64,000 nucleotides of DNA from an uncultured Ignavibacteria bacterium (GTDB lineage: Bacteria; Zixibacteria; MSB-5A5; WJJR01), in assembly GCA_964440935.1 (NCBI GenBank), contig CAYTTY010000001.1, positions 80,933 to 144,932 on the forward strand, written 5' to 3'. Positions 29,431 through 64,000 of this stretch are shown here, one piece after another. Position 1 is the first letter of the stretch. Each line of letters opens with the position of its first letter. A program made the position numbers and the translations under genes. A model generated the notes under the pieces. That model searched no databases. It was not told where the DNA came from and saw nothing but the letters and a program-made list of their open reading frames with translations.

Positions 29431-29440
29431 ATCAAAGGCA

Positions 29441-42172: not shown

Positions 42173-42199
42173 TCAATTCATTTCTTCAATAACCGTCTG

Positions 42200-42236
42200 G
42201 AGCCCCCGTCTGCATTATTATTGGCAGCGGGGGCTT
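42200..42236 (+). terminator. hairpin downstream of aminotransferase (possible terminator)
   Basis: AGCCCCCGTCTGC...GCAGCGGGGGCT stem-loop; weak U-tract. Confidence 0.4.
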
Positions 42237-42768
42237 CGTCATGACGATAGATAGATCTGCCGTTCTTCACTGATTTCGACAGACCCCACATCCCCGATCC
42301 GTTGAATAGCAACTCGTTGACTGGCAACGCGATGCGAGTCAGTGCGGTGCTGTCGTCGGGCTATTGTGCAGGTGTACAAACCCTTCAACGCGGCGGAGAG
42401 GGGAAGGATACATGTTAAAGAATCAGCCAATCTGTCGAAGACGTTGATAGGTGTTCTCTTTTGGAACACAGGGGTTAGTGTGTGAACAGATGTGGAGGGA
42501 GGCGGACGCCGTGGCACCCCGGATGCGTTGTACTGGACCGTTAGTTTCTGCTCCGAAATCACTTGGTGCCAAAAAAAGTGTGTCGAATTTCCTTGACGAA
42601 TTGCCTCCACGGTATCACCGTTCGACCAGCGGACTAGGTCCAGGGGGGACCTATGGGAAGCAACGAATGGATGCGTTGCGATGACCCGGGTAGTCAACCG
42701 CTTCATCACAGCCAGGAATTAAGACAACTCAATAGAGCAACGCTCACTCTTCAGTAAGGAGGGGACAC

Positions 42769-45750: not shown

Positions 45751-45809
45751 AAGAGAGATGTCGGATGTTGGAGAATATCTCATACGATAGTGTCCATAGG
45801 AGGACGAGT

Positions 45810-48752
45810 ATGAAGCTCTTGAGGAAACTGATCGTTCCGACTGTTGTCCTCGCCTGGGCGTCCGTCGCGGTGGCGGCGGTGCCGATCGGGGGACCCTACG
45901 CGGGGGTTCAGCCGGCGGGGACACAGATCACGGATACACAAACATGGATCGATATCAACAACCTGTTGATGTTCGTCACCAACACCGGGTCGTTTGCCTA
46001 CGACCAGGGCGGTGTATTAGGCAAAAGCGACGGCCTTTACTTCCCGCGTGGCACCAACAAGACCGTCATTTTCGCAGGCGGTTTCTGGATGGGCGCCAAG
46101 GTGAACGATGAGATTCGTATCGCACTGGCCGAATATTCTGATGAGTTCGTTCCCGGTCCGTTTGGCGGCGACCCAACAGCCCAGAAAAACCGCGTCTACA
46201 AGATTCGTCAAGGCGACACGCCCGAATCGAATCCCGATTACGCCGACTGGCCATTCGAGGATGGTGCTCCGGCGTTGAAGGCCGCCGACGGCTCGGATTC
46301 GCTCGATGCCAGCGGCAATCCGATTCCCGGGCTAGTCGGCGACATGACCCTATGGTCGGTGTTTAATGACGGTGACCCGACGGCACATAGCAACAATGCC
46401 GGGGACACCGAGCCACTCAACGTCGAAGTGCACAATACGACCTTCGCCTTCGAACGCACGGGAGCGTTGGGCAACTGCATCTTTGTCCGCCTGAAGATCA
46501 TCAACAAGGGCGCCGACACGCTGAAGGACGCCTTTGTGAACACCTGGGCGGACCCTGATTTGGGTGATGCCGGTGACGACCTCGTGGGTTGCGACACCAC
46601 GCTCAGCCTGGGCTACTGCTACAACGCCGGCAGTGACCAGACCTATGGCGCGGCGCCGCCCGCAGTTGGTTACGACTTCTTCCAAGGTCCCATGATCGAG
46701 ACAGGCAACTTGGAAGATTCGGCGCTGGCCTACGGCCAGTGGTTCCACGGATTCAAGAACCTGCCGATGACATCGTTCAACAAATACATCAATGGTACAG
46801 ACCCCAGCAGCGCCGAGCAGTCCTACAACTACATGTCGGGTCTTCAGCGGGAGGGCCAGCCGCACACCAATCCGACTACTGGAGAGGTGACCACCTACGT
46901 GCATTCAGGCGATCCGGTCACCGGCATTGGCTGGCTTGATTCCAACCCGGCCGACCGTCGCTACTTCCTCTCATCCGGCCCATTCGACATGGCGCCGGGA
47001 GATTCGCAGGAAGTGGTGATCGGTATCGTGGTCGGACAGGGTGCCGACCGGCTCACGTCAATCACGGCGTTGAAGTTCAATGATCAGTTTGCACAGAGTG
47101 CATTCGACAAGAACTTCAACCTGCCACGCCCGCCGGTTGCACCGAAGATCACCGCGACCGAACTCGATCAGGCCGTTGTTCTCACGTGGACAGACACGTC
47201 GGAGGTCGACCCCGGTGACTACGCCTTTGAGGGGTACAATATCTATCAGGGGCTGACGAGTTCCGGACCCTGGCAGTGGCTGGCGACCTTTGATCTCGAA
47301 AACGAAATCACGGTCATCTTCGATCAGGACGTCGATTTGGATTTTGGTGTTGTCGTGGAGAAGCCGGTCCAGCGCGGTTCCGATTCGGGCATCAGACGCT
47401 ACATCCACCTTACGGATGACAAGTTCGAAGGACGGCCGCTACGCAACTACACCGACTATCATTTTGCGGTGACTGCTTACTCCTATAAAGAGGGAGAGGC
47501 ACCCAACAACCTTGAAAACCCATTCTCCGCGGCCCGTGTGAAGGTAACGCCGCAGCCGGAGGCACCGGGAGTGGACATTAGCGGTGTCCTTGCGGATACA
47601 ATTCCTGCCGAGCACACGGCCGGTGGTGGAGACGGCTCAGCATTCGCACTTGTGATCGATCCGTCGATCACAACGGGACACGATTACGCAGTCGGTTTTG
47701 ATGACGACGGCTCAGGTGGTTACACCTGGCGCGTCACCGATCTTGATGAGAACGACGACGTTGTTACGGGTCAAACCAACCAAAGCGGCGATGATGACTA
47801 TCCCATTTTCGATGGGCTCATGGTCAAAGTCCTCGGACCGCCGGTGGGCGTCAAGGGTGTCGATGAAGTGGCCAACGAGAGCGGCCCCATCGAACCGGAC
47901 AATGTTCATTTCAGTCTCAATTCAACTGGCGATTGGTACATCGATCCGGGTGGCGGCTTCGATCGCTACTCTTGGCAAGGTGGAACAACGCATGATTACG
48001 AGATTCGGTTCACGCCAGAGGCGACCGAATACTGCTGGGACTGGTTTGGACAGGGAGATTACGCGTTCGTCTTTGGAACACGTGTTCCCATTGAATTTTG
48101 GGATATCACAGACAACCGTCGAATCACCTTCATGTTGATCGACGACGATGAAAGTGGTGACTTTTCATGGGGCGACGGTCTGTACATTTGGGACATCAAC
48201 TACGATGACGTTGCCTGGGAGACTCCCGGGATTCACACGGGCGACTATGATCCGGATTACCACGATTTGCATTACGGTCGCTTCTGGTTTTACGACTACT
48301 CCCATGAGTTGACGCGGCCGGCACCGGGGACGATTGTGCGGGTGACGACGAATAAGATCAACACGGATGAGGACGTCTTCACGTTTACCGCCCCAGCGGT
48401 CGATACCGGCGGTCCGGCGGAGGTGGCCGACGATCTCTCGCAGATCAAAGTCGTGCCGAACCCGTATTACGCATTCTCGTCCTACGAGCCGGATCAGTTC
48501 GCACGTCAAGTCCGCTTCACCAACCTCCCGGAATCATGCACGATTCGCATTTTCAATCTGGGCGGTGACCTGGTACGGACACTCACAAAGGACGACCCGA
48601 CCACCTTCACGACGTGGAATCTTCAGACGGAAAACAACATCCTCGTTTCGTCGGGGCTGTATGTCTATGTCGTCACAGATAACATGTCGGGGGCCGATCA
48701 CGTGGGCAAGATGGCGGTCTTTGTTGAGATCGAACAATTGGATGTCTATTGA
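45810..48752 (+). CDS. large secreted protein with C-terminal T9SS-type sorting domain (Por_Secre_tail / FlgD-Ig-like); function unknown
   Basis: ATG 45810 preceded by GGAGGA. Signal peptide MKLLRKLIVPTVVLAWASVAVAA. The C-terminal ~90 aa (VVPNPYY...IRIFNLGGDLVRTL...SGLYVYVV...AVFV) matches the beta-sandwich CTD of T9SS cargo. An internal FN3-like segment is present. Confidence 0.6.
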   Translation: MKLLRKLIVPTVVLAWASVAVAAVPIGGPYAGVQPAGTQITDTQTWIDINNLLMFVTNTGSFAYDQGGVLGKSDGLYFPRGTNKTVIFAGGFWMGAKVNDEIRIALAEYSDEFVPGPFGGDPTAQKNRVYKIRQGDTPESNPDYADWPFEDGAPALKAADGSDSLDASGNPIPGLVGDMTLWSVFNDGDPTAHSNNAGDTEPLNVEVHNTTFAFERTGALGNCIFVRLKIINKGADTLKDAFVNTWADPDLGDAGDDLVGCDTTLSLGYCYNAGSDQTYGAAPPAVGYDFFQGPMIETGNLEDSALAYGQWFHGFKNLPMTSFNKYINGTDPSSAEQSYNYMSGLQREGQPHTNPTTGEVTTYVHSGDPVTGIGWLDSNPADRRYFLSSGPFDMAPGDSQEVVIGIVVGQGADRLTSITALKFNDQFAQSAFDKNFNLPRPPVAPKITATELDQAVVLTWTDTSEVDPGDYAFEGYNIYQGLTSSGPWQWLATFDLENEITVIFDQDVDLDFGVVVEKPVQRGSDSGIRRYIHLTDDKFEGRPLRNYTDYHFAVTAYSYKEGEAPNNLENPFSAARVKVTPQPEAPGVDISGVLADTIPAEHTAGGGDGSAFALVIDPSITTGHDYAVGFDDDGSGGYTWRVTDLDENDDVVTGQTNQSGDDDYPIFDGLMVKVLGPPVGVKGVDEVANESGPIEPDNVHFSLNSTGDWYIDPGGGFDRYSWQGGTTHDYEIRFTPEATEYCWDWFGQGDYAFVFGTRVPIEFWDITDNRRITFMLIDDDESGDFSWGDGLYIWDINYDDVAWETPGIHTGDYDPDYHDLHYGRFWFYDYSHELTRPAPGTIVRVTTNKINTDEDVFTFTAPAVDTGGPAEVADDLSQIKVVPNPYYAFSSYEPDQFARQVRFTNLPESCTIRIFNLGGDLVRTLTKDDPTTFTTWNLQTENNILVSSGLYVYVVTDNMSGADHVGKMAVFVEIEQLDVY

Positions 48753-48772
48753 GCGAGGGGAGAAACCGAACC

Positions 48773-49792
48773 ATGAAGAGACTCATAATCATCGTGGCGG
48801 CGATTGCCCTGGTGGTGAGTTGTGTGGACACCACGATCGCCGAAAACGCCCCACGCCTTGGATCGGCGGGCGCACATGAATTGCGTCTGCCTGTATCGGC
48901 CCGCATGATGGGCATGGCGGGTGCGTCGCTGGTGAACGCGAAAGGCACCGACGGGTTGTTCTGGAATCCTGCCGGGATTGCCATGTCGGAGCGCACCGAA
49001 CTGGAATTCTCGCACTTGACGTACATCGCGGATATCAATCAGAGTTACCTTGGTGCTGTCACGCATTTCGGCTCGATCGGATCATTTGGGCTGTCGGCGA
49101 AGTTCATTACGACGGGCGATATCGCCGTGACAACCGAAACCCAGCCCAATGGTACCGGCGAGATGTACTCACCGACGTTCTCGGTCATCGGTGCTCACTG
49201 GGCGCGCCGATTCACCGATCGTATCACCTTCGGGCTGTCGACGCATTACATCACCGAAAGCATCGATCGCGCGCGCGCGACAGGTGTCGCATTCGACTTG
49301 GGATTTGACTACGATCCGCAGTGGCGGGGACTGAAGTTTGCGATCGTGATGAAAAACTACGGCCCCGACATGCGGTTCGGTGGCGAGGGCTTCTCCGAAG
49401 ACGTGCGTGTTCCGGGGCAGGATCCCAACTCACCGGACAAAACCATTCGCCAGCAGTCGGCGGCGTTTGAATTGCCGTCACATGTGAAGCTTGGCTTGGC
49501 GTGGGAGGCATGGCAGCAGGATCGCAATAACATGATGCTCTACGGATCGTTCCAGAGCAACACGTTCAACAACGACGAAGGACACTTCGGCGGAGAGTAC
49601 TCGTACGACAACACGTTCTTCCTGCGCGCCGGATACACCTACTCCGATCAGGATGCGTACCTGTATGGTGTGACGTTCGGCGGCGGGCTTGTCCTCAAGT
49701 GGGGCGAGACCGACATGATGTTCGACTACGCCTGGACCGAAACCGACGTGTTCGACGCCAATCAGTATTTCACCGTCAAAGTGGCTTTCTGA
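48773..49792 (+). CDS. outer-membrane beta-barrel of the FadL/OmpP1/PorV superfamily (PorV/PorQ-like)
   Basis: Signal peptide. N-terminal hatch-like motif SARMMGMAGASLV...LFWNPAGIA (FadL family has SxRxxGxAGAG...NPA). Amphipathic beta-strand periodicity throughout; ends ...TVKVAF. Sits directly downstream of the CTD protein. Confidence 0.55.
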   Translation: MKRLIIIVAAIALVVSCVDTTIAENAPRLGSAGAHELRLPVSARMMGMAGASLVNAKGTDGLFWNPAGIAMSERTELEFSHLTYIADINQSYLGAVTHFGSIGSFGLSAKFITTGDIAVTTETQPNGTGEMYSPTFSVIGAHWARRFTDRITFGLSTHYITESIDRARATGVAFDLGFDYDPQWRGLKFAIVMKNYGPDMRFGGEGFSEDVRVPGQDPNSPDKTIRQQSAAFELPSHVKLGLAWEAWQQDRNNMMLYGSFQSNTFNNDEGHFGGEYSYDNTFFLRAGYTYSDQDAYLYGVTFGGGLVLKWGETDMMFDYAWTETDVFDANQYFTVKVAF

Positions 49793-49823
49793 TACGGATA
49801 TCAGAAAAGCGCACGGACGCTCA

Positions 49824-49859
49824 AAACACCCCCGCTCCGCAAGCGGGGGTGTTTTTTTG
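49824..49859 (+). terminator. Rho-independent terminator
   Basis: CACCCCCGC-TCCGCAA-GCGGGGGTG stem followed by T7 (TTTTTTT). Confidence 0.85.
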
Positions 49860-50043
49860 AGCAGGCGATCAGACGAGCGATTCGATCGTCGATGTGGCCC
49901 TGATGGCGCTTTGGGCCATCAGGGCCTGCGTACCTCACACTGGAATCGTATTCGGCCGTCATCCGCGATCAGTCATTGCGCACAGGACAAATGACGATAA
50001 CTTGGGTGGTACGATGTGGAGGCGTAGAACGTACAAAAGAGAC

Positions 50044-51975
50044 ATGACACGGCGTGGGGAATACAGGCTATCGGTATTCTGTGTGGTACTCGCACTCATG
50101 TTGGCTACGACTGTGGGTGCCCAGTCAGACCCACAGAGGCATGGTCCGATCTCGCCGCCCGCCATCGAAGTGGTGTATCCTAAGAAGGGGCAGCGGATCG
50201 GGCCGGTCGATTCCACGTTTGTGATCGGTTCAGTTACGCCGGGGGCATCTTTACGCATCAATGGCCATCTTATCGATGTCTACCGTACCGGTGGGTTTTT
50301 GGCCTGGCTGCCCGTCGAGAAGGGCAAGTTCACCTTCCGCCTGCGTGCGACCGATGGATTCCATTTCGATTCGCTCGACCTGCCGGTCACCATCGCCGAC
50401 CCGCGACCAATTCCGCCCGATAGCGGGCTGATCATCCGCAACGTGCGCCCGATGTGGAACCGGACGATTCGCGCCGGCGATGAAATCGAGATTCGGTTTG
50501 ATGGGACCGTCGGATGTGACGCCCGGTATTGGATTATCGGAGATGTCGATTCACTTGGGCCGTTTCCCATGGCTGAGCAGCATTATGAGCGCTATTCCGA
50601 TTTCCACACATATCGCAAGGACGCATTGCTCGAAGACGGTCCCCGGTACGATCAGGCGCCGTCCGGAGGCCGCTATACCGGTGTCTGGAGAGTCCCCGAT
50701 ATCGAGGGCGCCGATTCGCTGACGGTTCGAGTTGAGCTGACCGGGCTCTCTCAGAAATGGCTGGAGTCGCGACGGCGTCACTACAAGACACACTACGGGC
50801 CACCGATACCGATCGACACGACAGTCCGCACGATTCGTGAGACCGCAACCGGCAGATTGCGTCCAGTTGATGATCTCCCGCCGCGGGTGGTTGAATTCAC
50901 TGACAGTGTGCAGACGCTGCGCATGGGTCCAAGACTGGGGTACATCACGATCTTTCAGCCTTACGGTGTGCGCACCCGTTGGTGGGGAGAGGCGGGACCG
51001 TGGACCATCTTACAGTTGGCGCCGGGACACATCGCCTGGCTTGAAAAAGATAAGACGAGGCTCCTGCCGGAGGGCACGCCGGTTCCGGAAACATTTATTG
51101 CGCGGATGTCCACCAAAGTCAGCGGTGACGATGTGCAATTCCGCGTGGGAACGTCGGAGCGGATTCCATTCAAGATAACCGTCGATGACGATCTGCATCA
51201 TGTGCGCGTGATCCTGTTCGGCGCCACGTCGAACACCGACTGGATCGAGCACGATCCCGATGATGACCTGATCAAGAACATCACCTGGTCGCAAATGCAA
51301 CCCGGTGTGTATGTGATCAACTTACGCCTGGCGCAACAGGTGTGGGGTTACGATGCCCATTACGATAACAAACAGTTTGTGCTGGAATTCAAACGGCCAC
51401 CGTATGTCAGCGATGATCTCGAAGGACTCAAGGTCGCGGTCGATGCCGGGCATTCACGCGATCCCGGCGCCATTGGGCCGACCGGCCTGATGGAAAAGGA
51501 CGCGAATCTCAAGATCGCCTGGAAAGTACACGCCGAACTGAAAGAGCGCGGTGCTGATGTCGTCATGACGCGTCTCGGCGATGAACATGTCGCGCTCTAT
51601 GACCGCCCGTCGCTGTCGGTCGCCGAGGATGTCGACCTGTTCGTGTCGGTGCACAACAATGCCGTTCCCGACGGTATCAATCCGTACTACCGCAACGGCA
51701 CGTCAACGTACTACTACCACACGTTCTCACGCGATTTCGCGCGGCACATGCACCATCGTGTCCTCGATGCCACTGAACTCAACGATTACGGTCTCACCCA
51801 CGGCAACTTCGCCGTGATCCGTCCCACGCATTATCCCTCCGTCCTCGTTGAATGTGCGTTCATCATTCTCCCCGAACAGGAGGAGATGCTGTTGGACGAC
51901 GATTTCATTGAGCGCACGGCCAAGGGGATTGTGAAAGGTATTGAGGATTTCGTGGAGGCGCGGTTGAAGCGGTAA
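50044..51975 (+). CDS. multidomain N-acetylmuramoyl-L-alanine amidase (C-terminal Amidase_3/AmiC-type domain, ~450 aa N-terminal region of unknown function)
   Basis: Start chosen at ATG 50044 (MTRRGEYRLSVFCVVLALMLATTVGA signal peptide); the track ORF begins 49894. The C-terminal VAVDAGHSRDPGA...EHVAL...SVHNNA...ECAFI motifs are the Zn-binding residues of Amidase_3. Confidence 0.8.
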   Translation: MTRRGEYRLSVFCVVLALMLATTVGAQSDPQRHGPISPPAIEVVYPKKGQRIGPVDSTFVIGSVTPGASLRINGHLIDVYRTGGFLAWLPVEKGKFTFRLRATDGFHFDSLDLPVTIADPRPIPPDSGLIIRNVRPMWNRTIRAGDEIEIRFDGTVGCDARYWIIGDVDSLGPFPMAEQHYERYSDFHTYRKDALLEDGPRYDQAPSGGRYTGVWRVPDIEGADSLTVRVELTGLSQKWLESRRRHYKTHYGPPIPIDTTVRTIRETATGRLRPVDDLPPRVVEFTDSVQTLRMGPRLGYITIFQPYGVRTRWWGEAGPWTILQLAPGHIAWLEKDKTRLLPEGTPVPETFIARMSTKVSGDDVQFRVGTSERIPFKITVDDDLHHVRVILFGATSNTDWIEHDPDDDLIKNITWSQMQPGVYVINLRLAQQVWGYDAHYDNKQFVLEFKRPPYVSDDLEGLKVAVDAGHSRDPGAIGPTGLMEKDANLKIAWKVHAELKERGADVVMTRLGDEHVALYDRPSLSVAEDVDLFVSVHNNAVPDGINPYYRNGTSTYYYHTFSRDFARHMHHRVLDATELNDYGLTHGNFAVIRPTHYPSVLVECAFIILPEQEEMLLDDDFIERTAKGIVKGIEDFVEARLKR

Positions 51976-52155
51976 TGTTTACTGAAGTCGATGTGGTATG
52001 TTGACACTGACTCGACAACCCATTTAATTCACACTGGCCAAGGTCATTGCACATACGTCAGGGCACCCGGCCGGGAGTACACAGCGGTGCTCCCCGGCGC
52101 TGGGGCGTGTTGACAACGTCTTATAGCAATTGTCATAAATCCTTTCCGTTTGGAT

Positions 52156-52347
52156 CAGGGTGCCAGGGGCCTTGAGGGGTGTGTTGCAAAACCCCCGAGA
52201 ATCACAGCCTTCGGGAGGGCGAGCCTCCCGGCGAGCCGCAACGGCATGTTCCACACGGCGGCTCGGCGGGAGCCTCGCCCTCCCCAGTCTGAGGTGATGA
52301 TAGTCAGCAGGCTTCTCAACACGCCCCTTGAGGCCCGTGGCACCCTG
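52156..52347. repeat. long nested inverted repeat (31-bp outer stem enclosing a 27-bp inner stem)
   Basis: Outer arms CAGGGTGCCAGGGGCCTTGAGGGGTGTGTTG (52156-52186) and CAACACGCCCCTTGAGGCCCGTGGCACCCTG (52318-52347) pair at 30/31 allowing G-U. Inner arms 52213-52239 and 52258-52285 (GGGAGGGCGAGCCTCCCGGCGAGCCGC / GCGGCTCGGCGGGAGCCTCGCCCTCCCC) pair at 25/27. Each inner arm is itself palindromic (GGGAGG-GCGA-CCTCCC). Confidence 0.7.
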
Positions 52348-52452
52348 ATGTCATCACGATGCACACGGTGCCTCGCTTCCCCTCAATCGGAAATCTATTC
52401 TGACAACCGCTCTAGGATGTGATCATATCGGGCGTTGTGAAGACGATCATCT

Positions 52453-52523
52453 GTAGGGGCGTACTGAGTACGCCCTCTCCCCGTATCGGATACGCGCCGA
52501 GGGCGTATTCAATACGCCCCTAC
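52453..52523. repeat. twin perfect palindromes GGGCGTAYT-N-ARTACGCCC (candidate operator pair or cruciform)
   Basis: GGGCGTACTGAGTACGCCC at 52457-52475 and GGGCGTATTCAATACGCCC at 52501-52519, separated by a third palindrome CGTATCGGATACG (52482-52494). The outer 25-nt arms are also mutually complementary. Confidence 0.65.
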
Positions 52524-52663
52524 GAGAGTACACGATCTTCAATGACACACGTTTTGCAACACGTCCCTCTGCCGTGGGATGCGCCGGTATTCACACATGG
52601 GTTATATTATTCACGTCATATTTAAAGCAATTGTCAGAATAACGTTCTGATTAAATTGAGAAG

Positions 52664-52892
52664 TGTTGTCATTCTCGCGAAAGCGGGAATCCATTTTCCG
52701 CGCGTGGCTGGGCTCAAAATGGCTCCCAGCTTTCGCGGGGATGACAGCGAGGGTCCCTGACGGCCCAATGGATTGCCGTTTGATTTCTATACTCTGTCAT
52801 CCCCGTCGGCCGTGGCGGACCGAGACAGTGTCGTAATTGCTTGTGTACGAAGACAATGGATTCCCGCTTTCGCGGGAATGACAGCGAAGGTT
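52664..52892. mobile_element. MITE-like unit bounded by inverted copies of a dRS3-type palindromic repeat (ATTCCCGC-TTTC-GCGGGAAT + GACAGCGA)
   Basis: Copy 1 is on the minus strand at 52668-52693 (GTCATTCTCGCGAAAGCGGGAATCCA). Copy 2 is degenerate, on the plus strand at 52721-52752. Copy 3 is perfect, on the plus strand at 52857-52890 (TGGATTCCCGCTTTCGCGGGAATGACAGCGAAGG). Copies 1 and 3 form ~27-nt terminal inverted repeats around ~165 bp. Confidence 0.5.
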
Positions 52893-53269
52893 ACTTGGCA
52901 ATCGGAAATCTATTCTGACAACCGCTCTATTATAGTTATAGGACGACTGAGCCGTAGGTCAGGGGCACAGCGCCCGCAACGTCCGTTGCGTTCACGACTG
53001 CGTGAGCGTGCCGGGCTCCTGACAATCGGAGAACAGGGGAAGACCAGAGCGATTGTCAACACCGTCTTTCGATTGACCGAGCGATGTAGCACGGGCGCCT
53101 CGCCCGTGCGGCATGGCCCGCTCGACCATGCTCACGGCAAGCGGGACGGCCATGCTACGGTCTCGTGAATCGGAAAGTTCTTCTGACAATCGCTATAATC
53201 CCTGGCGTGTCAGGCGCGTGATTGGGATACCAGCGGCTTTACGACAATCGTTTCAATGGTGCACAAACT

Positions 53270-54094
53270 CTAGCCTTTCACCGCCCCCGCGGTAATCCCC
53301 GCAATAATCTGTCTTTGGAAGAAGAGGAACACGATCAGCACTGGAACCGTGGCCATAGTAGACGCAGCGAACAAGTGCGGAAGATCGACCCCCTGATAGC
53401 CCCGAAACATGGCCAAGGCAACGGGCAGTGTGCGCGCCTTTTCATTGGTGAGAATGAACGGGAAGAGAAACGAGTTCCACGTCAACCAGAACACCTGAAC
53501 CGCCAGCACCGCCAGTGTCGGTTTGCAGATAGGCATGACAATGCGGTACACGATCCGCCACGGTCCTGCACCGTCGACACGCGCCGCCTCCTCGACTTCA
53601 ATCGGCACCGATGACACCGCGCTACGCACCAAGAGTACACCGAGCGGCATCACGATGACGGGCAGGATGATCGCTGCAAGGGTGTCGTAAAGGCCGAGTT
53701 GATGGATCAGAATGAACATCGGTACAATCAACACATACTGCGGTACCATCAAAACGATCGCCGACGACGCAAACAAAACTCGTCGTCCGGGAAATCGACG
53801 CCGCGCTAAAGCATATCCCACCGGAAAACACAGCAACAGATTGCCAATCGTTACAATGATCGCAACGACGGCAGAATTGAACAGGTAAAAGCCAAATGGC
53901 ATCGACCCAAACAGATCGACGTAGTTGCCCCACCGTGGCGCATTATCCAACGGGTTGAACCAGCGCGCATCCCAGTGTGGCGATACCGAACCAACCACCA
54001 TCCAGATAAACGGGAGCAGCATCCCGGCTAGGACAATCAGCAGAACAACGGAGAGAGTCTTCTCGCCAGTGGTACGGGGACGATCGTGCCTCAT
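53270..54094 (-). CDS. carbohydrate ABC transporter permease (MalG/UgpE-type)
   Basis: Six transmembrane helices and an EAA loop (EAARVDGAGPWRIVYRIVMP); 274 aa. Confidence 0.85.
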   Translation of the reverse strand: MRHDRPRTTGEKTLSVVLLIVLAGMLLPFIWMVVGSVSPHWDARWFNPLDNAPRWGNYVDLFGSMPFGFYLFNSAVVAIIVTIGNLLLCFPVGYALARRRFPGRRVLFASSAIVLMVPQYVLIVPMFILIHQLGLYDTLAAIILPVIVMPLGVLLVRSAVSSVPIEVEEAARVDGAGPWRIVYRIVMPICKPTLAVLAVQVFWLTWNSFLFPFILTNEKARTLPVALAMFRGYQGVDLPHLFAASTMATVPVLIVFLFFQRQIIAGITAGAVKG

Positions 54095-54987
54095 TCTTCC
54101 GCACCCCGTCCAAATGACAACAACCGAAACTGAACGAGCGAAATCAGGGCGATGACAATAAACAACAAATAGGCCGCGGCCGATGCGTATCCCATGTCAA
54201 AACGCTCGAATCCCGACGTGTAAACATGATATACGACAGTCGTCGTCGACCCGACCGGCCCGCCCTGTGTCATTACGAAGATCTCGGTGAAGATCTGGAA
54301 ACTCTTGATCAGGTTGATCACGACCGCGTAGAGCAACATCGGCCGCAGGTACGGCCACGTGATCGCCCAGAACCGCTGCCAGGCATTGGCGCCGTGGGTC
54401 AACGCATCATCGATCAAATCCTGTGGAATGGTCTGCAACCCCGCCAGAAACAAAAGCGCGTAGTAGCCGATCGACACCCACACGTCCATGACCATCACCG
54501 CCAGCAGCGCGGTTGATTCCGAGAGCAGAAACCCCTGCTCCGGGACCGGAATGCCGATCATTTGCGCCAGGCGATACAGATATCCATTTTGGCCGTACAA
54601 CTGGAGAAATACCAGTGCGACGACCACTGTCGCCGTTAGTGTCGGTGCGAAAAAGCCGGCACGGAACAACGCCCGTCCCCAGATACGGCGGTTCAGCGCT
54701 AATGCAACGACGATGGCAATCGCGGTTGTAACCGGAACCGTTCCCGCCGCAAAGAATACGGTGTGCCCGAGTGCACTCCAGAATTCACTGTTGTTGAGCA
54801 CGGCTGCGAAGTTTGCCAGTCCGACCCACGTCCACTCACCGGAGAACACATCGCGCCGTGCAAAGGCGAGGGCCAAAGCATAGAGAAGAGGATACAGCCA
54901 GAAGACGCCGAGCACAATCGTCCATGGCAATGACAACACGACGCCCGACCAGTCGCGCCGGGTGTCGTGGGAGTCAGGTATGGACAT
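54091..54987 (-). CDS. carbohydrate ABC transporter permease (MalF/UgpA-type)
   Basis: EAA-like loop IDDALTHGANAWQRFWAITWPYLRP; six transmembrane helices. The stop overlaps the downstream permease start (ATGA). Confidence 0.85.
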   Translation of the reverse strand: MSIPDSHDTRRDWSGVVLSLPWTIVLGVFWLYPLLYALALAFARRDVFSGEWTWVGLANFAAVLNNSEFWSALGHTVFFAAGTVPVTTAIAIVVALALNRRIWGRALFRAGFFAPTLTATVVVALVFLQLYGQNGYLYRLAQMIGIPVPEQGFLLSESTALLAVMVMDVWVSIGYYALLFLAGLQTIPQDLIDDALTHGANAWQRFWAITWPYLRPMLLYAVVINLIKSFQIFTEIFVMTQGGPVGSTTTVVYHVYTSGFERFDMGYASAAAYLLFIVIALISLVQFRLLSFGRGAEE

Positions 54988-55010
54988 ATCCGTCGTTAGC
55001 GAAGAAGTTG

Positions 55011-56300
55011 CTACTTCTCCAAGATGTCATTAATGCGGTCGCAGGTTTCGGCCATGGCTGAGGGAGGATCCAACTTTTCGTACAAGGCCTGCTCAATACC
55101 CCATTCGAGTTCCTTTTCAATGTCAACCCAGTCGGGGTGCACCGGTGGTGATTGCGCGCTCAGCATCTGCCGCATAAACACGCGACGCACCGGATGCTCA
55201 TAGAAGTAGGGATTGTTTCCGGTCTCGATATGGACCGGAGTGGCACACCCGGTGGCGATACACAGGTTGAAAACGTGTTTCGGTTTGAGCAGATGACGCG
55301 CCAGCTTGATCGCGCCCAGCGGTTCTCGTGCGGCCCGTGGAATCGCCAGATACTCGCCACCGGCAAAGGAGACCGAGCCACCGTGGTCGACACTCGGCTG
55401 CGGGAGCATATGCACCGAGTAGCGAAAGTCGGCAATGTCGGCTTCATCGATCCGCCGATACAGCCAATCCCCGCTCAGATGGAAGAGCAGCTCGCCAGAC
55501 ATGAACATATTGTCCAGGACCGCTTGTTTTTCAACGATACCGAATTGCTTCAGATCGACAAAGAACTCCAGTGCTTCAATGGCCTCGGGCATCACCAGAG
55601 CGCACTGATCGCCGAGGAGGCTGTCGGGTTCGAGGATGTCCGCCTCATTCGACCACAGATAGGGGAGAAAGGCCTTGTAGAGCCGATGCCGTTCGGCCGC
55701 GTTGATGCCGTAGCCGTAAAACTGCGGTTTATGACGGTTGGCAAAACGCGACCACAGTTTCAATTCACCCCATGTGACTGGTGGACGGTTTGGCCGGAGG
55801 CCCACGACCTCCGCGATCACATCATTCTGGTATAGAACACGTGTGGAGAGATACCACGGTAACGCCCAACAGCTCCCTCGGTAGATGCTTGGTGGCCAGC
55901 CGATGTATTCGGGTTGCAGGCGGGCGTACTCTGACGACAGATCGGTCAGTGCACCCGGTGCTGCGAACTCGGCGATCCAATCCGATCCCACCTCGAGCAA
56001 GTCGGGTGCCTCATTGCCGGCAAACGCGGCCACGATCTTCTGATGTCCGTCGTTCCACGTCAGGTCGGTGATCTCGACTTCGTATTCGGGATTTTCGCTC
56101 TCGAATTCCTCGACCGCCTTGATGATGACGTCTTTGACCTTCGGATCGGTCCAGAACTGCCAGAAGCGAACGATCGTCCGTCCGTCTGAGGTTCGCTGAT
56201 TGTCGCCACTGCCACACCCGCCAAAGACAAGCACGACCGCTGCCAAGCAGAGGACAGTCAGACGACAGACGATTGCTGTGTGTGATTTGGTCATATCCAT
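55011..56300 (-). CDS. ABC transporter extracellular solute-binding protein (family 1, sugar-type) lipoprotein
   Basis: Signal peptide with lipobox (LVFGGCGS). ~430 aa, typical of MalE/UgpB-like solute-binding proteins. First gene of the SBP-permease-permease operon. Confidence 0.8.
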   Translation of the reverse strand: MDMTKSHTAIVCRLTVLCLAAVVLVFGGCGSGDNQRTSDGRTIVRFWQFWTDPKVKDVIIKAVEEFESENPEYEVEITDLTWNDGHQKIVAAFAGNEAPDLLEVGSDWIAEFAAPGALTDLSSEYARLQPEYIGWPPSIYRGSCWALPWYLSTRVLYQNDVIAEVVGLRPNRPPVTWGELKLWSRFANRHKPQFYGYGINAAERHRLYKAFLPYLWSNEADILEPDSLLGDQCALVMPEAIEALEFFVDLKQFGIVEKQAVLDNMFMSGELLFHLSGDWLYRRIDEADIADFRYSVHMLPQPSVDHGGSVSFAGGEYLAIPRAAREPLGAIKLARHLLKPKHVFNLCIATGCATPVHIETGNNPYFYEHPVRRVFMRQMLSAQSPPVHPDWVDIEKELEWGIEQALYEKLDPPSAMAETCDRINDILEK

Positions 56301-56309
56301 AACGCTAAA

Positions 56310-56345
56310 CAGCCCGCCTTTGGGCGGGCTGTCAAGTAACTAACG
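56310..56345 (-). terminator. hairpin between the LTXXQ gene and the ABC operon (possible terminator/attenuator)
   Basis: CAGCCCGCC-TTTG-GGCGGGCTG perfect 9-bp stem, followed on the minus strand by TTTAGCGTT. Confidence 0.4.
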
Positions 56346-56481
56346 ATGTGCAGATCAAAGTAGAGGGCGGTTTGGAGAATCATAGGTGATGGTGAGTGTA
56401 TGCATTCCTTTCGTTTTCATATCCGCGTCAGGACCATCCGCTACTACTTGCGTCCCAAACACACGGTCCGCAAACCCCAGG

Positions 56482-57567
56482 TTAGTGGGGTCCGCGGCGT
56501 CCGTGTGGACCAGACGGAAGGAGGTCCGTCATTGCCTCGAAAACAGCCTGTTGCTCGTCGTTTAGAATGGCTACGATTGCGTCGTGCGTGTCCTCACGAA
56601 TCTGCTCGACCTGTTCACGCCTGGCCTCACGATCGGGACGTTGATCGCCGATGCCGTCGTGCAGGTCCTGCATGTGGTCATGTGTCGTCGCCAGAATGGT
56701 CTCAAGCTGTGAGACCTGTGCATTGCTGAGATCCAGAGCTGCAGTCAAGAGTTCCACGCGGGCGTCGTGGCGCTCGATCATACCGTCCTGCATGTGTTCC
56801 CGACGTTCCTCGCGCCGCTCCTGACGATTGGCTTCGAGCTGCTGGAGTTGGTTGGGTGTGAGGATGGCTTCAACGCTTTCGCGCATCTGCTCGCGAAGAG
56901 CGACCGCTTCCTCGGACCGTCCGAAGCCGCGTTCACCGCCATATTGCTCGCGCAGTGCCTGCATGGCCTCGCGGTGCTCTTCGCGCAGTTCGGCTAACTG
57001 TGTTCGCTGCGCTTCAGTCGGATCCAGCTCGGCAAACATCTCTTGGCCGGACCCACGATGTCCTCGGAACCCGCGTCCGCCACGACGCCCATCGGTGCGG
57101 TCGGTCCACTGTTCCCGCGCCTGCATCCGCATGGTTTCATGCTGATCTTTGATGACTTCAAGCAACGCGACCATCTGATCGGCGTCGAGGATTTCGGCGC
57201 TCTCTTTGAGCAACGTATGGAGCGGACGGTCACCGGCGGGGCGTCCGCGAAAACCACGTTCGCCATCTTCACGCGCCTGTTGACGCTTCGCCCGGCGGCT
57301 GTCGACCGCGCGGTTGTAACGATCCAGCGCCGATTGCATCAGATTTTCCTGATCACTTTTCAGGCTGACTTTGGCCTGGACGGCGCTCAGCGTAATCGGT
57401 TCGATGAACGTGCCGTCATCGGTCGAGGCCGTCAGGTTCGACCCTTGTGTGCTGGTATCGCCCGACTGGCATCCGACCAGTCCGAATGCGAAGAGGGCGA
57501 CGCCGAGGATCAGGATACTGCCGATCATTTGCGTGCGGCGTTTCGGTGTCATTGTTGGTGTCTTCAT
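56482..57567 (-). CDS. periplasmic LTXXQ-motif protein (Spy/CpxP/ZraP family-like), lipoprotein
   Basis: Start at ATG 57567 (rc) with an AGGAGG Shine-Dalgarno; the track begins 57681. Lipobox LVGC. Repeated LxxxQ-type helices (LDADQMVALL, LDPTEAQRTQLAEL, LTPNQLQQL). Highly charged, low-complexity and helical. Confidence 0.65.
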   Translation of the reverse strand: MKTPTMTPKRRTQMIGSILILGVALFAFGLVGCQSGDTSTQGSNLTASTDDGTFIEPITLSAVQAKVSLKSDQENLMQSALDRYNRAVDSRRAKRQQAREDGERGFRGRPAGDRPLHTLLKESAEILDADQMVALLEVIKDQHETMRMQAREQWTDRTDGRRGGRGFRGHRGSGQEMFAELDPTEAQRTQLAELREEHREAMQALREQYGGERGFGRSEEAVALREQMRESVEAILTPNQLQQLEANRQERREERREHMQDGMIERHDARVELLTAALDLSNAQVSQLETILATTHDHMQDLHDGIGDQRPDREARREQVEQIREDTHDAIVAILNDEQQAVFEAMTDLLPSGPHGRRGPH

Positions 57568-57632
57568 CGTGTAGTCCTCCTGAAGCTGATTGCTATAGCT
57601 CGTTATCGTGTATTCCCTGCCTGAATTCTCGA

Positions 57633-58454
57633 CTAGTTCAGTTCGGACATCGGCTCGACGGCGAGTTCGACTTTCGTCCATTGGTTTAGCGGCTCGGGCC
57701 GTTCGGGACGATTGCGGCCGCGTCGGCCAAAGCCACCGGCGCCACCGAATCGACCGTCTCGTCCACGCATGCCTTCGCGTGTCTTCACCAGTGGCTCACG
57801 ATCAAATTCGGGTTTAGGCGTCTCGAAGCCGATTCCGATGTCGCCGCCCGGATTCGTTCCAATTGCGTAGAGATGTTCTTCACTGTAGAAGAGTGGCACC
57901 TTCAACTCGTAGACTAGCCGCCTGTTTTCAATCATCAGTTGCGCGCTGATGTCCGCCCGGGCGCCGGTCTGGATGCGCTGAATGACCTCGCCTTGTTCAT
58001 CCAGCAACTCCATTCCCGGCGCCAGCGAGTCGGACAACACAGTGAGATCGTTACGATCCGGACGTTTTCCCGTGAATCGTCGAAGTGATCCGCTACCCAC
58101 AAGTCCCACCGGATAGCGGACACCAAATTCCTTATCATCGCCGCCGTCGGGATCGAACCATATGATCAGGCCAAGCCCCATGATCTGACGAATGGCCGTC
58201 TCATCAGTGGTGGCCAAATGAACATAGATGAATTCGTCATCATTCCGAACCGCGATCCCGACTTTGGTGTCATCGAGGTGGATTTTCGCCTGAGCCCACT
58301 CCGATTCCGCGCCGTCAATAACGACGGAGTCGGAATTCCACTGACTGGTGATTTCCGGTTCGCCGCTGTGTGCCGTCGTCACGTAGAGGCCGCAGACAAG
58401 AATCGCGACCAGGCCGCTGGTGATTCGCTTGGTTGTGTCAGTCCGTGCCAACAT
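57633..58454 (-). CDS. hypothetical secreted protein
   Basis: Signal peptide (VAILVCGLYVTTAHS). Gly/Arg-rich C-terminal tail. Between the HK and the LTXXQ protein on the same strand. Confidence 0.45.
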   Translation of the reverse strand: MLARTDTTKRITSGLVAILVCGLYVTTAHSGEPEITSQWNSDSVVIDGAESEWAQAKIHLDDTKVGIAVRNDDEFIYVHLATTDETAIRQIMGLGLIIWFDPDGGDDKEFGVRYPVGLVGSGSLRRFTGKRPDRNDLTVLSDSLAPGMELLDEQGEVIQRIQTGARADISAQLMIENRRLVYELKVPLFYSEEHLYAIGTNPGGDIGIGFETPKPEFDREPLVKTREGMRGRDGRFGGAGGFGRRGRNRPERPEPLNQWTKVELAVEPMSELN

Positions 58455-58595
58455 TTCCTGCCCTCCATGAGCGCTCGGTCTCCGTCGCTCTCACAAGGGA
58501 ATACCTTTGAGATGTGGTAGAAATGTTGCAGAGGGATGGAATTGTGCGATTGGGCTCAGAATTCGATGTGGATGACCCTGCGTCGCCCGGACCTC

Positions 58596-58632
58596 CCGCC
58601 CGCGCGGCATGGCCGAGACGGCCATGCTACGA
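58596..58632. repeat. REP-like palindromic element (second copy of the one at 53100-53160)
   Basis: GCGGCATGGCC-GAGAC-GGCCATGCTACG with a perfect 8-bp stem. 53108-53157 carries the same termini (GCGGCATGGCC...GACGGCCATGCTACG) with an internal insertion. Confidence 0.5.
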
Positions 58633-58642
58633 GAGTGGGCTC

Positions 58643-60106
58643 TTACCGTGGCAACTCATTGCCCTTAGGCAGTTCGACAGAAATCACCGCCCCCGACGGT
58701 TCCTGATTCGCGGCCCAAACAGATCCACCATGCTGCTGCGCGATCTCTTTGACGATGGCCAGTCCCAGTCCTGTCCCTGAATCGGAACGCGCTGGATCGG
58801 CACGGTAAAACCGGTCGAAAATGTGGGGAAGGTCATCATCACGAAAACCCGAACCGTCGTCGGCTACGGTCAGCCTGTATCGGTCCGGTGAAGGCACATC
58901 AATGCTGACCGTGACCGATCCACCAGATGGCACATATCGCAGCGAATTGATCAGCAGATTTTCGAACATCTGTTCGAGCCGACGACCGTCGGCGATGATC
59001 CAGGCTTCCTGATCCGGTGTCGGACCATCGATCTGCAATCCGGCTTTCTCAAAGCGTGGACGGTAGCGGCCGATCGTGTTGCGACATAACGCCGCCCAAT
59101 CAAGCGATTCGGGAGAGAGGGCCGCCGACCCCGACTCCAACCGAGCCAACTCGAGCAGATCATTCACGAGCAAGCCCATCCGTTGCGATTCATCGAGGAT
59201 ATTCGACAGATACTGACGTCGTTCATCATCCGAAATCGGTATGTCGGGCCGCTGTAAGGTCTCCGCATATCCACGAATCGATGTCAGCGGTGTCGAAAGT
59301 TCGTGCGAGATATCGGCCAGCAGTTGGCGACGTTGCTTATCCATCCGTTCGACGCGCTCCCGGGATTGCGCCAGGCTCTCTGTCATACGATTGAGCTGCT
59401 CACCGACACGGTCGATTTCGTCTCGTCCGGAGTGTTCCACCCGGACACTCAAGTCACCCTCAGCCACCTGCAAGGCCAGATGTTCGAGCGCGCGAATCCG
59501 TCGGAGCAGATAACGGAAGATGATGAATCCACCGGCGCCGGCGAGGACGATCGCCACCGGCAGGATAAACAGGATGTGCCACGGCGAGTGCTGGCGGCGT
59601 AAAGAGATGCCGCGTCGGGGTGACATGGCCACCACTTCACCAATGACGCCTTCAGTGGTCTCAACAGGCATGACCGCTGTCATCAGCCGCTTGTCGGATT
59701 GGATTTCCCAGAGACGGCGTCCCCAGCGCCGCCCGCGCGTTGAGTCCTGGCCCTCGTCGGGTGGTGCGAGACCGGGCGGCGGGTTCATCCGGTTAAACGG
59801 ACCGGGACGACTCGCGACAATCTCGCCATCAGTGCCGCGAAAGGTCAGACGGGCACCCGATTCGATTGACGAATACTCGCGTAAGATCTCGCGGATCTGG
59901 CCCTGCGTAGGATTGCCCGGAAGCGAAGCCAGTTCGCGAGCGGCATCGCGCGCCAAGTCCTCCAGCGTGCTTTGCTGCAAACGATCGGCGATCGGCCGTA
60001 GAATGGTGACAGCGAAGACACCCTGGACAATGGTGGCGACGACCAGAACCAGCAGGAAGACGCCGGCGAAGGTCCACAGCAAGCTGCGGGGACGCAATCG
60101 CTTCAT
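58643..60106 (-). CDS. sensor histidine kinase (TM-periplasmic-TM-HAMP-HisKA-HATPase)
   Basis: H-box ADISHELSTPLTSIRG; N box LINSLRY; G boxes DDGSGF and GTGLGLAIV; 487 aa. Confidence 0.85.
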   Translation of the reverse strand: MKRLRPRSLLWTFAGVFLLVLVVATIVQGVFAVTILRPIADRLQQSTLEDLARDAARELASLPGNPTQGQIREILREYSSIESGARLTFRGTDGEIVASRPGPFNRMNPPPGLAPPDEGQDSTRGRRWGRRLWEIQSDKRLMTAVMPVETTEGVIGEVVAMSPRRGISLRRQHSPWHILFILPVAIVLAGAGGFIIFRYLLRRIRALEHLALQVAEGDLSVRVEHSGRDEIDRVGEQLNRMTESLAQSRERVERMDKQRRQLLADISHELSTPLTSIRGYAETLQRPDIPISDDERRQYLSNILDESQRMGLLVNDLLELARLESGSAALSPESLDWAALCRNTIGRYRPRFEKAGLQIDGPTPDQEAWIIADGRRLEQMFENLLINSLRYVPSGGSVTVSIDVPSPDRYRLTVADDGSGFRDDDLPHIFDRFYRADPARSDSGTGLGLAIVKEIAQQHGGSVWAANQEPSGAVISVELPKGNELPR

Positions 60107-60789
60107 TCACTTGCCTCCGTGAATCGATAACCGGCGCCCCAGACCGTTTGAATGTAGCGCGGATGGGACGCATCGGTCTCGAGATGTTTTCGCAGGCGGC
60201 TGATCAGACTATCGATGGAACGTGGATCGACCACCCGATCTTCACCCCAGACCTGTTCCATCAGGGCCTCCCGCGAGTACACGCGCCCGGCATGCGACGC
60301 CATGAAGTAGAGCAAGTCGAATTCGAGTGATGTCAGTTCGACCGGCTGTCCATTGCGCATCACGACGCGGCGCGACGGATCGATGGTCAACGGACCGCGG
60401 GTCAGCGGCTCCTTACGTGAGACCGATGTTGTTCGCCTCAGCAGCGCGCGGACACGTGCCACCAGCTCGAGGGTACTGAATGGCTTGGTGAGATAGTCGT
60501 CCGCGCCGATTTCAAATCCAAGTACCTTGTCGCCTTCGCTGGAGCGGGCCGTGAGCATCAGGATGGGGAGATCGCTGTCGCGACGAATCTGTCGGGTGAG
60601 TTCGATCCCGTCCATATGCGGCATCATGACATCCAGCACCAGCAACCGGGGACGCTGCCGTTGCACCTCATGCAAGGCGGTCAATCCATCGTGAACCTGT
60701 CGGCACGAGAACCCGGCTGCTTCGAGGTTCTTAGCCACCAGTTCGGCAATCTTGCGGTCATCTTCGGCAATGAGAATGTCCAGGCTCAT
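60103..60789 (-). CDS. OmpR-family response regulator (receiver + winged-helix DNA-binding domain)
   Basis: ILIAEDD, LLVLDVMMPHMDG and KP receiver motifs. C-terminal winged helix (...YIQTVWGAGYRF). Overlaps the HK by 4 nt. Confidence 0.9.
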   Translation of the reverse strand: MSLDILIAEDDRKIAELVAKNLEAAGFSCRQVHDGLTALHEVQRQRPRLLVLDVMMPHMDGIELTRQIRRDSDLPILMLTARSSEGDKVLGFEIGADDYLTKPFSTLELVARVRALLRRTTSVSRKEPLTRGPLTIDPSRRVVMRNGQPVELTSLEFDLLYFMASHAGRVYSREALMEQVWGEDRVVDPRSIDSLISRLRKHLETDASHPRYIQTVWGAGYRFTEASE

Positions 60790-60884
60790 AACATACGCTC
60801 GCTGGAAATCGGCATCCTGTCAAGCAGATCGAATCGACTCGCGTGATTCACACGTCCCCTGACTCCTCAACGAGGGGTGCCCCA

Positions 60885-60921
60885 CCCTAACCGGAAGCCA
60901 TTACATGGCTTCCGGTTAGGG
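60885..60921. other. perfect 15-bp stem hairpin in the regulator upstream region
   Basis: CCCTAACCGGAAGCC-ATTACAT-GGCTTCCGGTTAGGG. No U-tract on either strand. Preceded by a second small hairpin (CCCCTG...GAGGGG). Confidence 0.5.
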
Positions 60922-61196
60922 TGAGATACGGCCCCGATGGTCCGACCGTGTTTCGGCGGATGCGCGGTCGGATAACATGGAATGGTTACCAAGATCTAAC
61001 CTCTGTTGTAACCTGTTGTGTTAACTTGGCAAAAGCGCATCCGCCCTACGTATAGGGCCCGCTGAGCCTGGATACTGTAACTCGATTCCCCTTCCACAAC
61101 CCAAATCACCCGTTGCGTTTTCCGCCAAATCAACGTACAATGGTCGGTCTTTTTGACCGACGATTCTGACAGAGACAAACCAAGGTGAGATGACCG

Positions 61197-61397
61197 ATGG
61201 CCAAACGTTGCAGCATAACAGGAAAACATCCGGTGGCGGGGAATAATGTCTCCCACGCCAACAATAAGACGAAACGTCGTTTCAATCCCAATCTCGTGTC
61301 CAAGCGCATTTGGAACCCGACGCAGAAGCGCTGGGTGCGTATGCGCATTTCGACCAAGGCTCTGAAGACGCTTGATAAGAAGGGTTGGGTGCGATAA
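61197..61397 (+). CDS. rpmB: 50S ribosomal protein L28
   Basis: MAKRCSITGKHPVAGNNVSHANNKTKRRFNPNL...; 66 aa; canonical L28 sequence. Confidence 0.9.
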   Translation: MAKRCSITGKHPVAGNNVSHANNKTKRRFNPNLVSKRIWNPTQKRWVRMRISTKALKTLDKKGWVR

Positions 61398-61423
61398 CCC
61401 GACCGGCTGGCTTCGATGGAAAT

Positions 61424-61455
61424 GAAAAAGCCCCGCCATTGGCGGGGCTTTTTCT
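61424..61455. terminator. bidirectional Rho-independent terminator (rpmB / cytochrome convergent pair)
   Basis: AAAAAGCCCCGCC-ATT-GGCGGGGCTTTTT: an A-tract, a 9-bp GC stem and a T-tract. Confidence 0.85.
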
Positions 61456-61476
61456 GTTCTACCTGAATGTGTCAGA

Positions 61477-62544: not shown

Positions 62545-62767
62545 CTGTTCCCTCCTATCAACACTCCTTGTCCATTGCTTCCATGATTGCGCATATGTTC
62601 ACAAACTTACTCCACTTTCATCATCATCGGCACGCTTGTCAAGGAAATACACCTTTAATCAGGTCTGGTTTTGCCCGCTTTTGACAACCCTAAGTTGAAA
62701 GGCGCGTTCAAAATAGGCGCATCTTGAACGTGCCGAATAAGTTGTCACTGTAATGTCAGTGAAGCGG

Positions 62768-64000
<1,233 letters not shown>

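Follow-up and report, generated by a model that had tools for sequence, protein, structure and literature searches.

A probable nest of IS630-family MITEs and palindromic repeats in a convergent intergenic gap of an uncultured Zixibacteria genome

Gene context and folding of the gap

Between positions 51976 and 53269, the DNA analysed here lies between the stop codons of two convergent genes and folds back on itself into hairpins; the question is what kind of DNA has accumulated there. Positions are those of the window, that is, the whole stretch of 64,000 nucleotides that was analysed. The gap is preceded by a gene for an N-acetylmuramoyl-L-alanine amidase (Amidase_3; 49894-51975, + strand) and followed by an ABC permease gene (53270-54094, - strand), with which a convergent ABC-transporter operon ends. 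A preliminary description had presented the gap as the longest non-coding stretch of the window, and this proved correct: the only other gap of more than 1 kb between large ORFs, at 28894-30018, contains ORFs of 113 and 145 aa, the former thioredoxin-like on the basis of a WCGPC motif. No Pfam match was obtained for the ORFs inside 51976-53269, one of which reads ...WIPAFAGMT..., as had been noted. A tRNA and tmRNA scan found none. The GC content had been said to fall to about 50%; this applies locally (about 49 to 51% at 52350-52950), but not to the region as a whole, where it is 55.4%, compared to 57.2% across the window.

A repeat search in the gap returned 12 families of direct repeats as well as 17 inverted pairs, the arms of which are up to 40 nt long and 83 to 94% complementary. 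For the key motifs, the expectation by chance is 0 matches. Both features of the preliminary description, a mosaic of short repeats in both orientations and very long secondary structures, are borne out by these counts and by the folding energy of the whole region, which is -620 kcal/mol, compared to -468 ± 11 kcal/mol in dinucleotide shuffles (z = -14). For the individual units described below, z ranges from -5.8 to -11.3. Folding had been suggested as a check on the region, and when the 64 kb were scanned in 425 sliding windows, the four strongest GC-corrected outliers all fell in 51976-53269, which is by far the most strongly self-folding DNA of the window. When the remaining 62.7 kb were searched for further copies of any of the gap repeats, none was found.

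About 300 nt of the gap could not be assigned to repeats (51976-52063, 52604-52622, 52930-53046 and 53198-53269). The first of these segments, the spacer 3' of the amidase stop codon, is part of an interval, 51976-52121, whose fold is unexceptional (z = -1.3), and the last, before the permease stop codon, has a z of 0.0.

Three units with ends of an IS630-family insertion sequence

A motif of about 30 nt is present in six copies in the gap, in strictly alternating orientation, and is absent from the rest of the window. The six copies pair up into three units of 149 to 303 nt, U1, U2 and U3 (family A), which all have the same polarity (+) and are devoid of transposase coding capacity. Their left ends are of the type TTGTCATAAATCC.TTCCG.TT and their right ends of the type AATCGGAAA..T.TTCTGACAA..GCT. 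U1 extends over 289 nt (52124-52412; IRL 52124-52153, IRR 52383-52412), and TA flanks were read off the sequence at 52122-52123 and 52413-52414. U2, of 303 nt (52625-52927; IRL 52625-52654, IRR 52898-52927), is likewise flanked by TA, at 52623-52624 and 52928-52929. U3 is shorter, 149 nt (53047-53195; IRR 53166-53195), and its IRL is degenerate: complementarity between the arms is 70% over 30 nt, and the unit has TA on its right, at 53196-53197, but CA on its left. The folds of the three units have z values of -10.9, -8.8 and -5.8, respectively. A CRISPR array was also considered and rejected, given that the motif copies alternate in orientation and that same-strand spacings are irregular (515 and 268 nt).

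A TIR HMM that was trained solely on ends from other genomes was run over the entire 64-kb window. Five significant matches were obtained (E from 1e-4 to 1e-9), all of them at ends of the three units: 52122-52153 (E = 4.9e-7) and 52383-52414 (E = 8.5e-9) for U1, 52624-52652 (E = 1.1e-4) and 52898-52929 (E = 3.1e-9) for U2, and 53167-53197 (E = 1.4e-9) for the right end of U3. The left end of U3 gave only a weak partial match, at 53046-53060 (E = 0.16). The spacer that precedes U3 (52930-53046, fold z = -1.9) contains a moderate hairpin and a 13-nt fragment resembling an IRR at 53016-53028, which is not significant with the same HMM (E = 11). All copies in the window are the three units in the gap, with none elsewhere in the 64 kb.

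The element to which such ends belong was found in other metagenomes and genomes, in three full-length copies where the same ends, flanked by TA, surround an IS630 transposase of 318 to 347 aa. In locus L034, a complete insertion sequence of about 1108 nt, GAGCGGTTGTCA...TGACAACCGCTC (also given as GAGCGGTTGTCAGAATAATTTTCCGATTG ... CCAATCGGAAAATATTTATGACAACCGCTC), stands between two TA dinucleotides around an ORF of 347 aa. This ORF scored 242.8 bits on the NCBIfam model for IS630 family transposases (NF033545, cutoff 100), and its Pfam domains are DDE_3 and HTH_23/28/29/32/33. The transposases of the two other copies, L040 and L041, share 70% and 85% identity, respectively, with the L034 enzyme. 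Relative to the direction of the transposase gene, the TTGTCATAAAT-type end is the left one and the TTCTGACAA-type end the right one. The right end encodes the last residues of the transposase and its stop codon (ATC GGA AAA TTA TTC TGA, that is, IGKLF and stop), which accounts for the left/right asymmetry common to all short units.

Short units with these ends are not restricted to the gap. A motif scan was performed on one genome per species, and a metagenome scan added nine loci, L034 among them. In the first of these scans, the motif with the extension ..CGCTATA was found in units of 105 to 212 nt displaying the same left/right asymmetry, in a Desulfobacterales metagenome-assembled genome (MAG; 13 contigs), a Zixibacteria MAG, a Pseudomonadota MAG and unclassified MAGs. 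TA flanks are found on both sides of most of the units in other genomes as well. A 134-nt unit in locus L037 retains the 5' leader of the insertion sequence together with the ATGGCGCGC start of its transposase gene, and is therefore an internal-deletion derivative. Its right end is identical to that of U1 at 31 of 31 positions and to that of U2 at 32 of 32; the IRR of U1 is also 91% identical to the insertion sequence of L034. The interiors of U1 to U3 contain no recognisable deletion remnants of the insertion sequence, and blastn matches to it are confined to the ends. Across genomes, too, the transposon ends alone are conserved, and the interiors of the units differ.

The sequences identify U1 to U3 as MITEs of a single IS630-family insertion sequence, and the preliminary view of the gap as a MITE-type intergenic repeat mosaic can be upheld: it holds three units with IS630-family TIRs and TA flanks, among which other palindromes are nested. 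We consider it highly probable, at about 0.88, that non-autonomous mobile DNA, in the form of IS630-family MITEs and nested palindromic repeats, has accumulated as a nest between the convergent genes. No IS630 transposase was found in the 64-kb window, and a tblastn search of the gap with the IS630 transposase gave nothing even at E = 10.

This last result bears on another explanation, namely that a single full-length IS630 copy has decayed in the region. From the left end of U1 to the right end of U3 (52124-53195), the distance of 1072 nt is close to the 1108 nt or so of the L034 element, as this explanation would have it. However, the interval encloses a further two right and two left ends with TA flanks, the gap is devoid of any transposase remnant, and its similarity to the insertion sequence is limited to the ends. 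A single decayed copy is thus extremely improbable.

A second explanation, put forward in the preliminary description as an alternative, is that structured non-coding RNAs (sRNA or ribozyme-like) are encoded by the units, with the hairpins as their functional folds. The extreme stability of the folds, with z down to -11, would suit such genes, and one hairpin resembles part of the Francisella sRNA FtrB, at 27.4 bits compared to a gathering score of 66. No Rfam family reached its threshold, though: in a scan at permissive E-values, the best match had 32.7 bits for a gathering score of 79, and all matches were generic, hairpin or miRNA-like. Moreover, the two strands fold equally well (-620 kcal/mol for the + strand, -602 kcal/mol for the - strand), the arms contain G.T and A.C mismatches in balanced numbers (13 versus 14, hence no G.U bias), and a consensus scan for promoters and terminators revealed no sigma-70-like promoter and nothing above shuffles. 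What is kept between genomes is the transposon ends, which the IS630 element accounts for, the interiors being unrelated. We regard RNA genes as very unlikely here, and the island should be annotated neither as RNA genes nor as ORFs (for instance, the 131-aa ORF that contains IPAFAGMT).

If the gap is read as a nest of MITEs, its closest precedent is the RUP element with IS630-Spn1, Correia elements, REPINs and BIMEs being architectural analogues; the element found here would be an unnamed member in an uncultured phylum. RUP of pneumococcus is mobilised by IS630-Spn1: its TIRs match those of an IS630-family insertion sequence, it inserts at TA, and it is intergenic and forms long stem-loops (PMC2229807). 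The units of the gap share with RUP a short, non-coding, intergenic nature, IS630-type TIRs, TA sites and long stem-loops. They differ in their hosts (Zixibacteria and other environmental lineages), in their longer ends (about 30 bp) and in their highly variable interiors with nested repeats. The parent transposase differs as well, since the most similar proteins encoded on sequenced plasmids, which all carry an IS630-family annotation, are less than 30% identical to it. The ends of Correia elements begin with TATAG, as do those found here. The Correia or NEMIS elements of Neisseria are also TA-flanked MITEs with inverted ends of about 25 to 30 bp and long hairpins (PMC2229807); past TATAG, however, their end sequence is unrelated, and in the present case an autonomous IS630 parent could be identified.

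The family of this parent is large, with 2342 transposase homologs at E <= 1e-40. These are mostly on contigs of 1.1 to 1.5 kb, as expected for a multi-copy insertion sequence. The ends, the TA duplication and the parent transposase now define an IS630-family element, so far without a name, together with its MITEs; element and MITEs occur in Zixibacteria, Desulfobacterales and further uncultured lineages, and they visibly fragment metagenome assemblies.

Repeats nested within and beside the MITEs

Almost the whole interior of U1 is filled by an inverted-repeat element of a second family, B (52154-52349; arms 52154-52193 and 52310-52349). Its 40-nt arms are 83% complementary and its fold has a z of -11.3. 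The family B ends, of about 33 nt (GTGCCACGGGCCTCAAGGGGCGTGTTGA...), recur with an unrelated interior in a locus of a Zixibacteria MAG (L024, 2907-3092), at 10 nt from an IS630 MITE. No clear target duplication was seen for family B. In the viral collection, its end had one match, which lies in an apparent coding sequence and was judged to be due to chance, and no parent was found there. Nested deeper still is a hairpin doublet, GGGAGGGCGAGCCTCCCGGCGAGCCGC / 18-nt spacer / complement, at 52213-52284, the 27-nt arms of which are 93% complementary; the 64-kb window contains no other copy of it.

Around U1, a further pair of arms was detected. The left one (52064-52120, +), which has the GGGGCGTGTTGACAA core of B-type ends, pairs with the right one (52548-52603, -), and the predicted duplex reaches -65 kcal/mol, compared to -37 ± 4.6 kcal/mol in shuffles. 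A segment of the right arm (52551-52569) has 89% complementarity with the inner B end at 52174-52192. These similarities suggest, tentatively, that the outer arms are an older, decayed B-like element enclosing U1 and the doublet of GTAG-type palindromes that follows it.

This doublet, GTAGGGGCGTACTGAGTACGCCC ... GGGCGTATTCAATACGCCCCTAC, occupies 52453-52523, and its stem extends to about 52438-52541. It consists of 35-nt arms, 86% complementary and 1 nt apart, and has a fold z of -9.6.

The interior of U2 is built by family C, whose repeat TGTCATTCCCGCGAAAGCGGGAATCCA is the source of the string IPAFAGMT. Its hairpins are nested in U2 at 52667-52891, with arms at 52667-52698, 52716-52754 and 52852-52891 and a fragment at 52794-52805. 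They were delineated from the inverted pairs I3 (94%), I5 (84%) and I17 and from the direct repeat D2, and they fold with a z of -8.9. It is this hairpin that caused the weak Rfam match to FtrB. Its general form is GTCATTCC - variable stem - short loop - stem' - GGAATCCAG, and variants keep the GTCATTCC...GGAATCCAG base while the apical stem is changed by compensatory pairs. Hairpins of this form had 54 matches in the fetched loci, compared to 2 to 6 in shuffles. The exact 26-mer of 52858-52883 is present in 21 stretches of unrelated IMG/VR contigs. According to crude ORF calls, 19 of 31 C-type hairpins in viral contigs are intergenic, with no clear pattern of position or orientation. The searchable literature yielded no description of the family C hairpin or of repeat-derived peptide strings. 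It is conceivable, albeit doubtful, that the IPAFAGMT hairpin is one member of an undescribed, very widespread family of hairpins that are mobile or recognised by a protein. If it belonged to a distinct class of mobile hairpins with its own enzyme, the gap would record the interplay of that class with IS630 MITEs, and this pan-taxon hairpin nested in U2 is the only open thread of wider interest.

Several of these repeats invite comparison with REPINs (as defined in PMC3116915), which are mobilised by RAYT (Y1) transposases. Three inverted pairs (I2, I5 and I6) are inverted doublets of short imperfect palindromes that form a hairpin. Like REPINs, the doublets at 52453-52523 and 52213-52284 and the C-type doublet each comprise two inverted copies of a palindrome, and one type begins with GTAG. 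The likeness has its limits, however, as a Y1 transposase search of the 64-kb window found none, and many unrelated contigs contain an identical C-type 26-mer. REPs are species-specific, and such identity across unrelated contigs is not expected of them. In the BIMEs of E. coli, palindromic units of alternating orientation are combined with other short motifs into intergenic mosaics. The gap has the same general organisation; by contrast with BIMEs, its scaffold consists of IS630 MITEs with nesting, its sequences are unrelated and its host is different.

Relatives, assembly and possible history of the gap

Homologs of the amidase place the window in Zixibacteria. The preliminary description had suggested that the same intergenic slot be compared in relatives, and two relatives indeed differ from the window there. 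In L039, where the amidase is 80% identical at the amino acid level, the flanking genes are 75 to 83% identical at the nucleotide level and gene order is the same, the slot is only 237 nt long, contains no IS630 ends and has no similarity to 51976-53269. In L065, from the MAG WJJR01, nucleotide identity is 87% up to the amidase stop codon and divergence is immediate thereafter. The first 208 nt of the L065 slot contain a B-like end and a homolog of the GTAG doublet (78% identity; L065 positions 4581-4661), and U1 is absent. U1 to U3 thus show presence/absence polymorphism, both relatives being without them in the available sequence. An exact empty site was sought by aligning the slots of the relatives, which are too diverged for this purpose; the REPIN-like element alone aligns. 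Elsewhere, in L024, the MAG WJJR01 carries two IS630 MITEs and one B element.

An independent assembly of the same sample (Logan contigs, SRR7048227) was compared with the window. Contigs L064 and L001 are 100% identical to 41205-52148 and 53169-64000, and therefore include the spacers 51976-52063 (in L064) and 53198-53269 (in L001) without any difference. They stop inside the outermost IS630 ends, at 52148 in the left end of U1 and at 53169 within the IRR of U3, probably on account of these ends being repeated elsewhere in the sample. Together with the relatives, such breaks suggest that the MITEs may be dispersed in many copies within this genome.

The central 1 kb (52149-53168) is outside the coverage of these contigs, so that the order or number of units could contain assembly error. 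One may thus ask whether short-read joining or collapse of repeat copies has created an arrangement in 52149-53168 that is partly artefactual, in which case the number and order of units would not be real. That the Logan assembly does not bridge the centre and that the right ends of U1 and U2 are identical over 31 nt would both fit with such an artefact. On the other hand, the independent contigs match the flanks at 100% identity and reach into the first and last IS630 ends, the units differ in their interiors and their TA flanks are intact, a relative has a homolog of the REPIN-like element in the corresponding slot, and the adjacency of families A and B recurs at another locus of a relative. 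An artefact of this kind is therefore judged unlikely.

Returning to a nest of mobile DNA, its history may be pictured as follows. An IS630-family DDE transposase encoded elsewhere would bind the ends of about 30 bp of U1 to U3 and move these MITEs in trans, by cut-and-paste, into TA, which would be duplicated on insertion. Duplication of TA and mobilisation in trans are proposed because of what is known of IS630/Tc1-mariner elements and of the precedent of RUP and IS630-Spn1 (PMC2229807). The convergent gap may have served as a harmless 'safe haven': as it holds no promoters to disrupt, insertions would be tolerated there, and each of them would widen the neutral target, giving rise to a nest. 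The B, C and GTAG palindromes would have arrived by routes of their own, into the MITEs or beside them; for the GTAG doublet, textbook knowledge would suggest a Y1 enzyme of the RAYT type as the mover. The earlier proposal of a 'decayed mobile-element landing pad' is acceptable as a fair description of the outcome, in which a safe gap between convergent genes received one insertion after another. In a small space, the nest would illustrate MITE-in-MITE insertion between convergent genes, by ordinary selfish DNA.

Every layer of the nest is an inverted repeat, and the DNA, as well as any read-through RNA, therefore folds into long nested hairpins, which may have some terminator or RNA-stabilising side effect. 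A stronger proposal, compatible with a mobile-element origin, is that the hairpins were co-opted as a bidirectional transcription barrier or as an mRNA 3'-end stabiliser for the convergent operons. Such roles have been described for bacterial MITEs in general, with REP, ERIC and Correia cases named (PMC2229807), and the very stable stems and their position between the stop codons of convergent genes are what co-option would predict. We nevertheless give it a low probability: terminator-like sites number 2, compared to 1.5 expected in shuffles, one of these two lies inside the permease gene, and relatives manage with a short gap in which these elements are absent.

The IS630-family ends and their distribution

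In the IS630-family element, the right inverted repeat covers the final five codons of the transposase and its TGA stop (IGKLF*), as found in three full-length copies outside the window (L034 16-45, L040 4008-4029 and L041 3939-3960). Because the repeat overlaps the 3' end of the gene, the C-terminus of the transposase survives as a fossil in the MITEs that share this end. On the same ENA contig as one full-length copy, and 1.6 kb from it, lies a 143-amino-acid Y1_Tnp (IS200-like) gene (L040 5658-6089, minus strand).

In the related Zixibacteria MAG, an intergenic gap of 600 nt contains an IS630 MITE separated by 10 nt from a copy of family B, the second type of inverted-repeat element (the pair spans L024 2698-3092, WJJR01000427.1), and a second MITE, near-identical to the first, is found 3.3 kb away. 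This locus repeats the MITE/family B adjacency, and clustering of these elements is therefore recurrent in the lineage. IS630-type MITEs were also found on at least 13 contigs of the Desulfobacterales MAG JAGVGH01 (among the loci, L002, L005, L006, L008, L009, L012, L014, L015, L018, L022, L023 and L026), where the same ends surround at least two unrelated types of interior. These copies imply that the parent IS spread across phyla.

Two families of hairpins

The 'IPAFAGMT' hairpin repeats occupy window positions 52667-52891. Their 26-mer GGATTCCCGCTTTCGCGGGAATGACA was matched exactly in 21 stretches from unrelated IMG/VR contigs (L043-L063), and one of these loci alone provides several copies of this type (L047 872-896, 2950-2975, 3005-3029 and 3353-3378). 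Among related copies GTCATTCC...GGAATCCAG is constant, and the apical stem varies through compensatory changes on its two sides, CCTGC/GCAGG and CCGGC/GCCGG being two of the versions. According to crude ORF calls, the majority of copies are singlets located between ORFs. A literature search for this hairpin found no description of it. On the minus strand, 52823-52905 gave a sub-threshold Rfam match to the Francisella sRNA FtrB (27.4 bits, compared to a gathering score of 66), the sole cause of which is the hairpin GUCAUUCCCGCG.A.GCGGGAAUC common to both; this suggests that the 'IPAFAGMT' type of repeat is embedded in the Rfam family FtrB.

Hairpins composed of GTAGGGGC, a variable apex and GCCCCTAC are repeated across unrelated contigs, at times within IS630 MITEs. 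They are found at L035 8532-8560, near L048 650, at L065 4581-4661 and at window 52453-52523, and constitute a second hairpin superfamily in which the base is conserved and the tip is variable.

The start of the amidase gene

The amidase gene that borders the gap on its left (49894-51975) was called mechanically as an ORF of 693 amino acids. Gene calls in the database give this protein, or a near-identical one, shorter lengths of 653 and 625 amino acids. Translation probably begins downstream of 49894.
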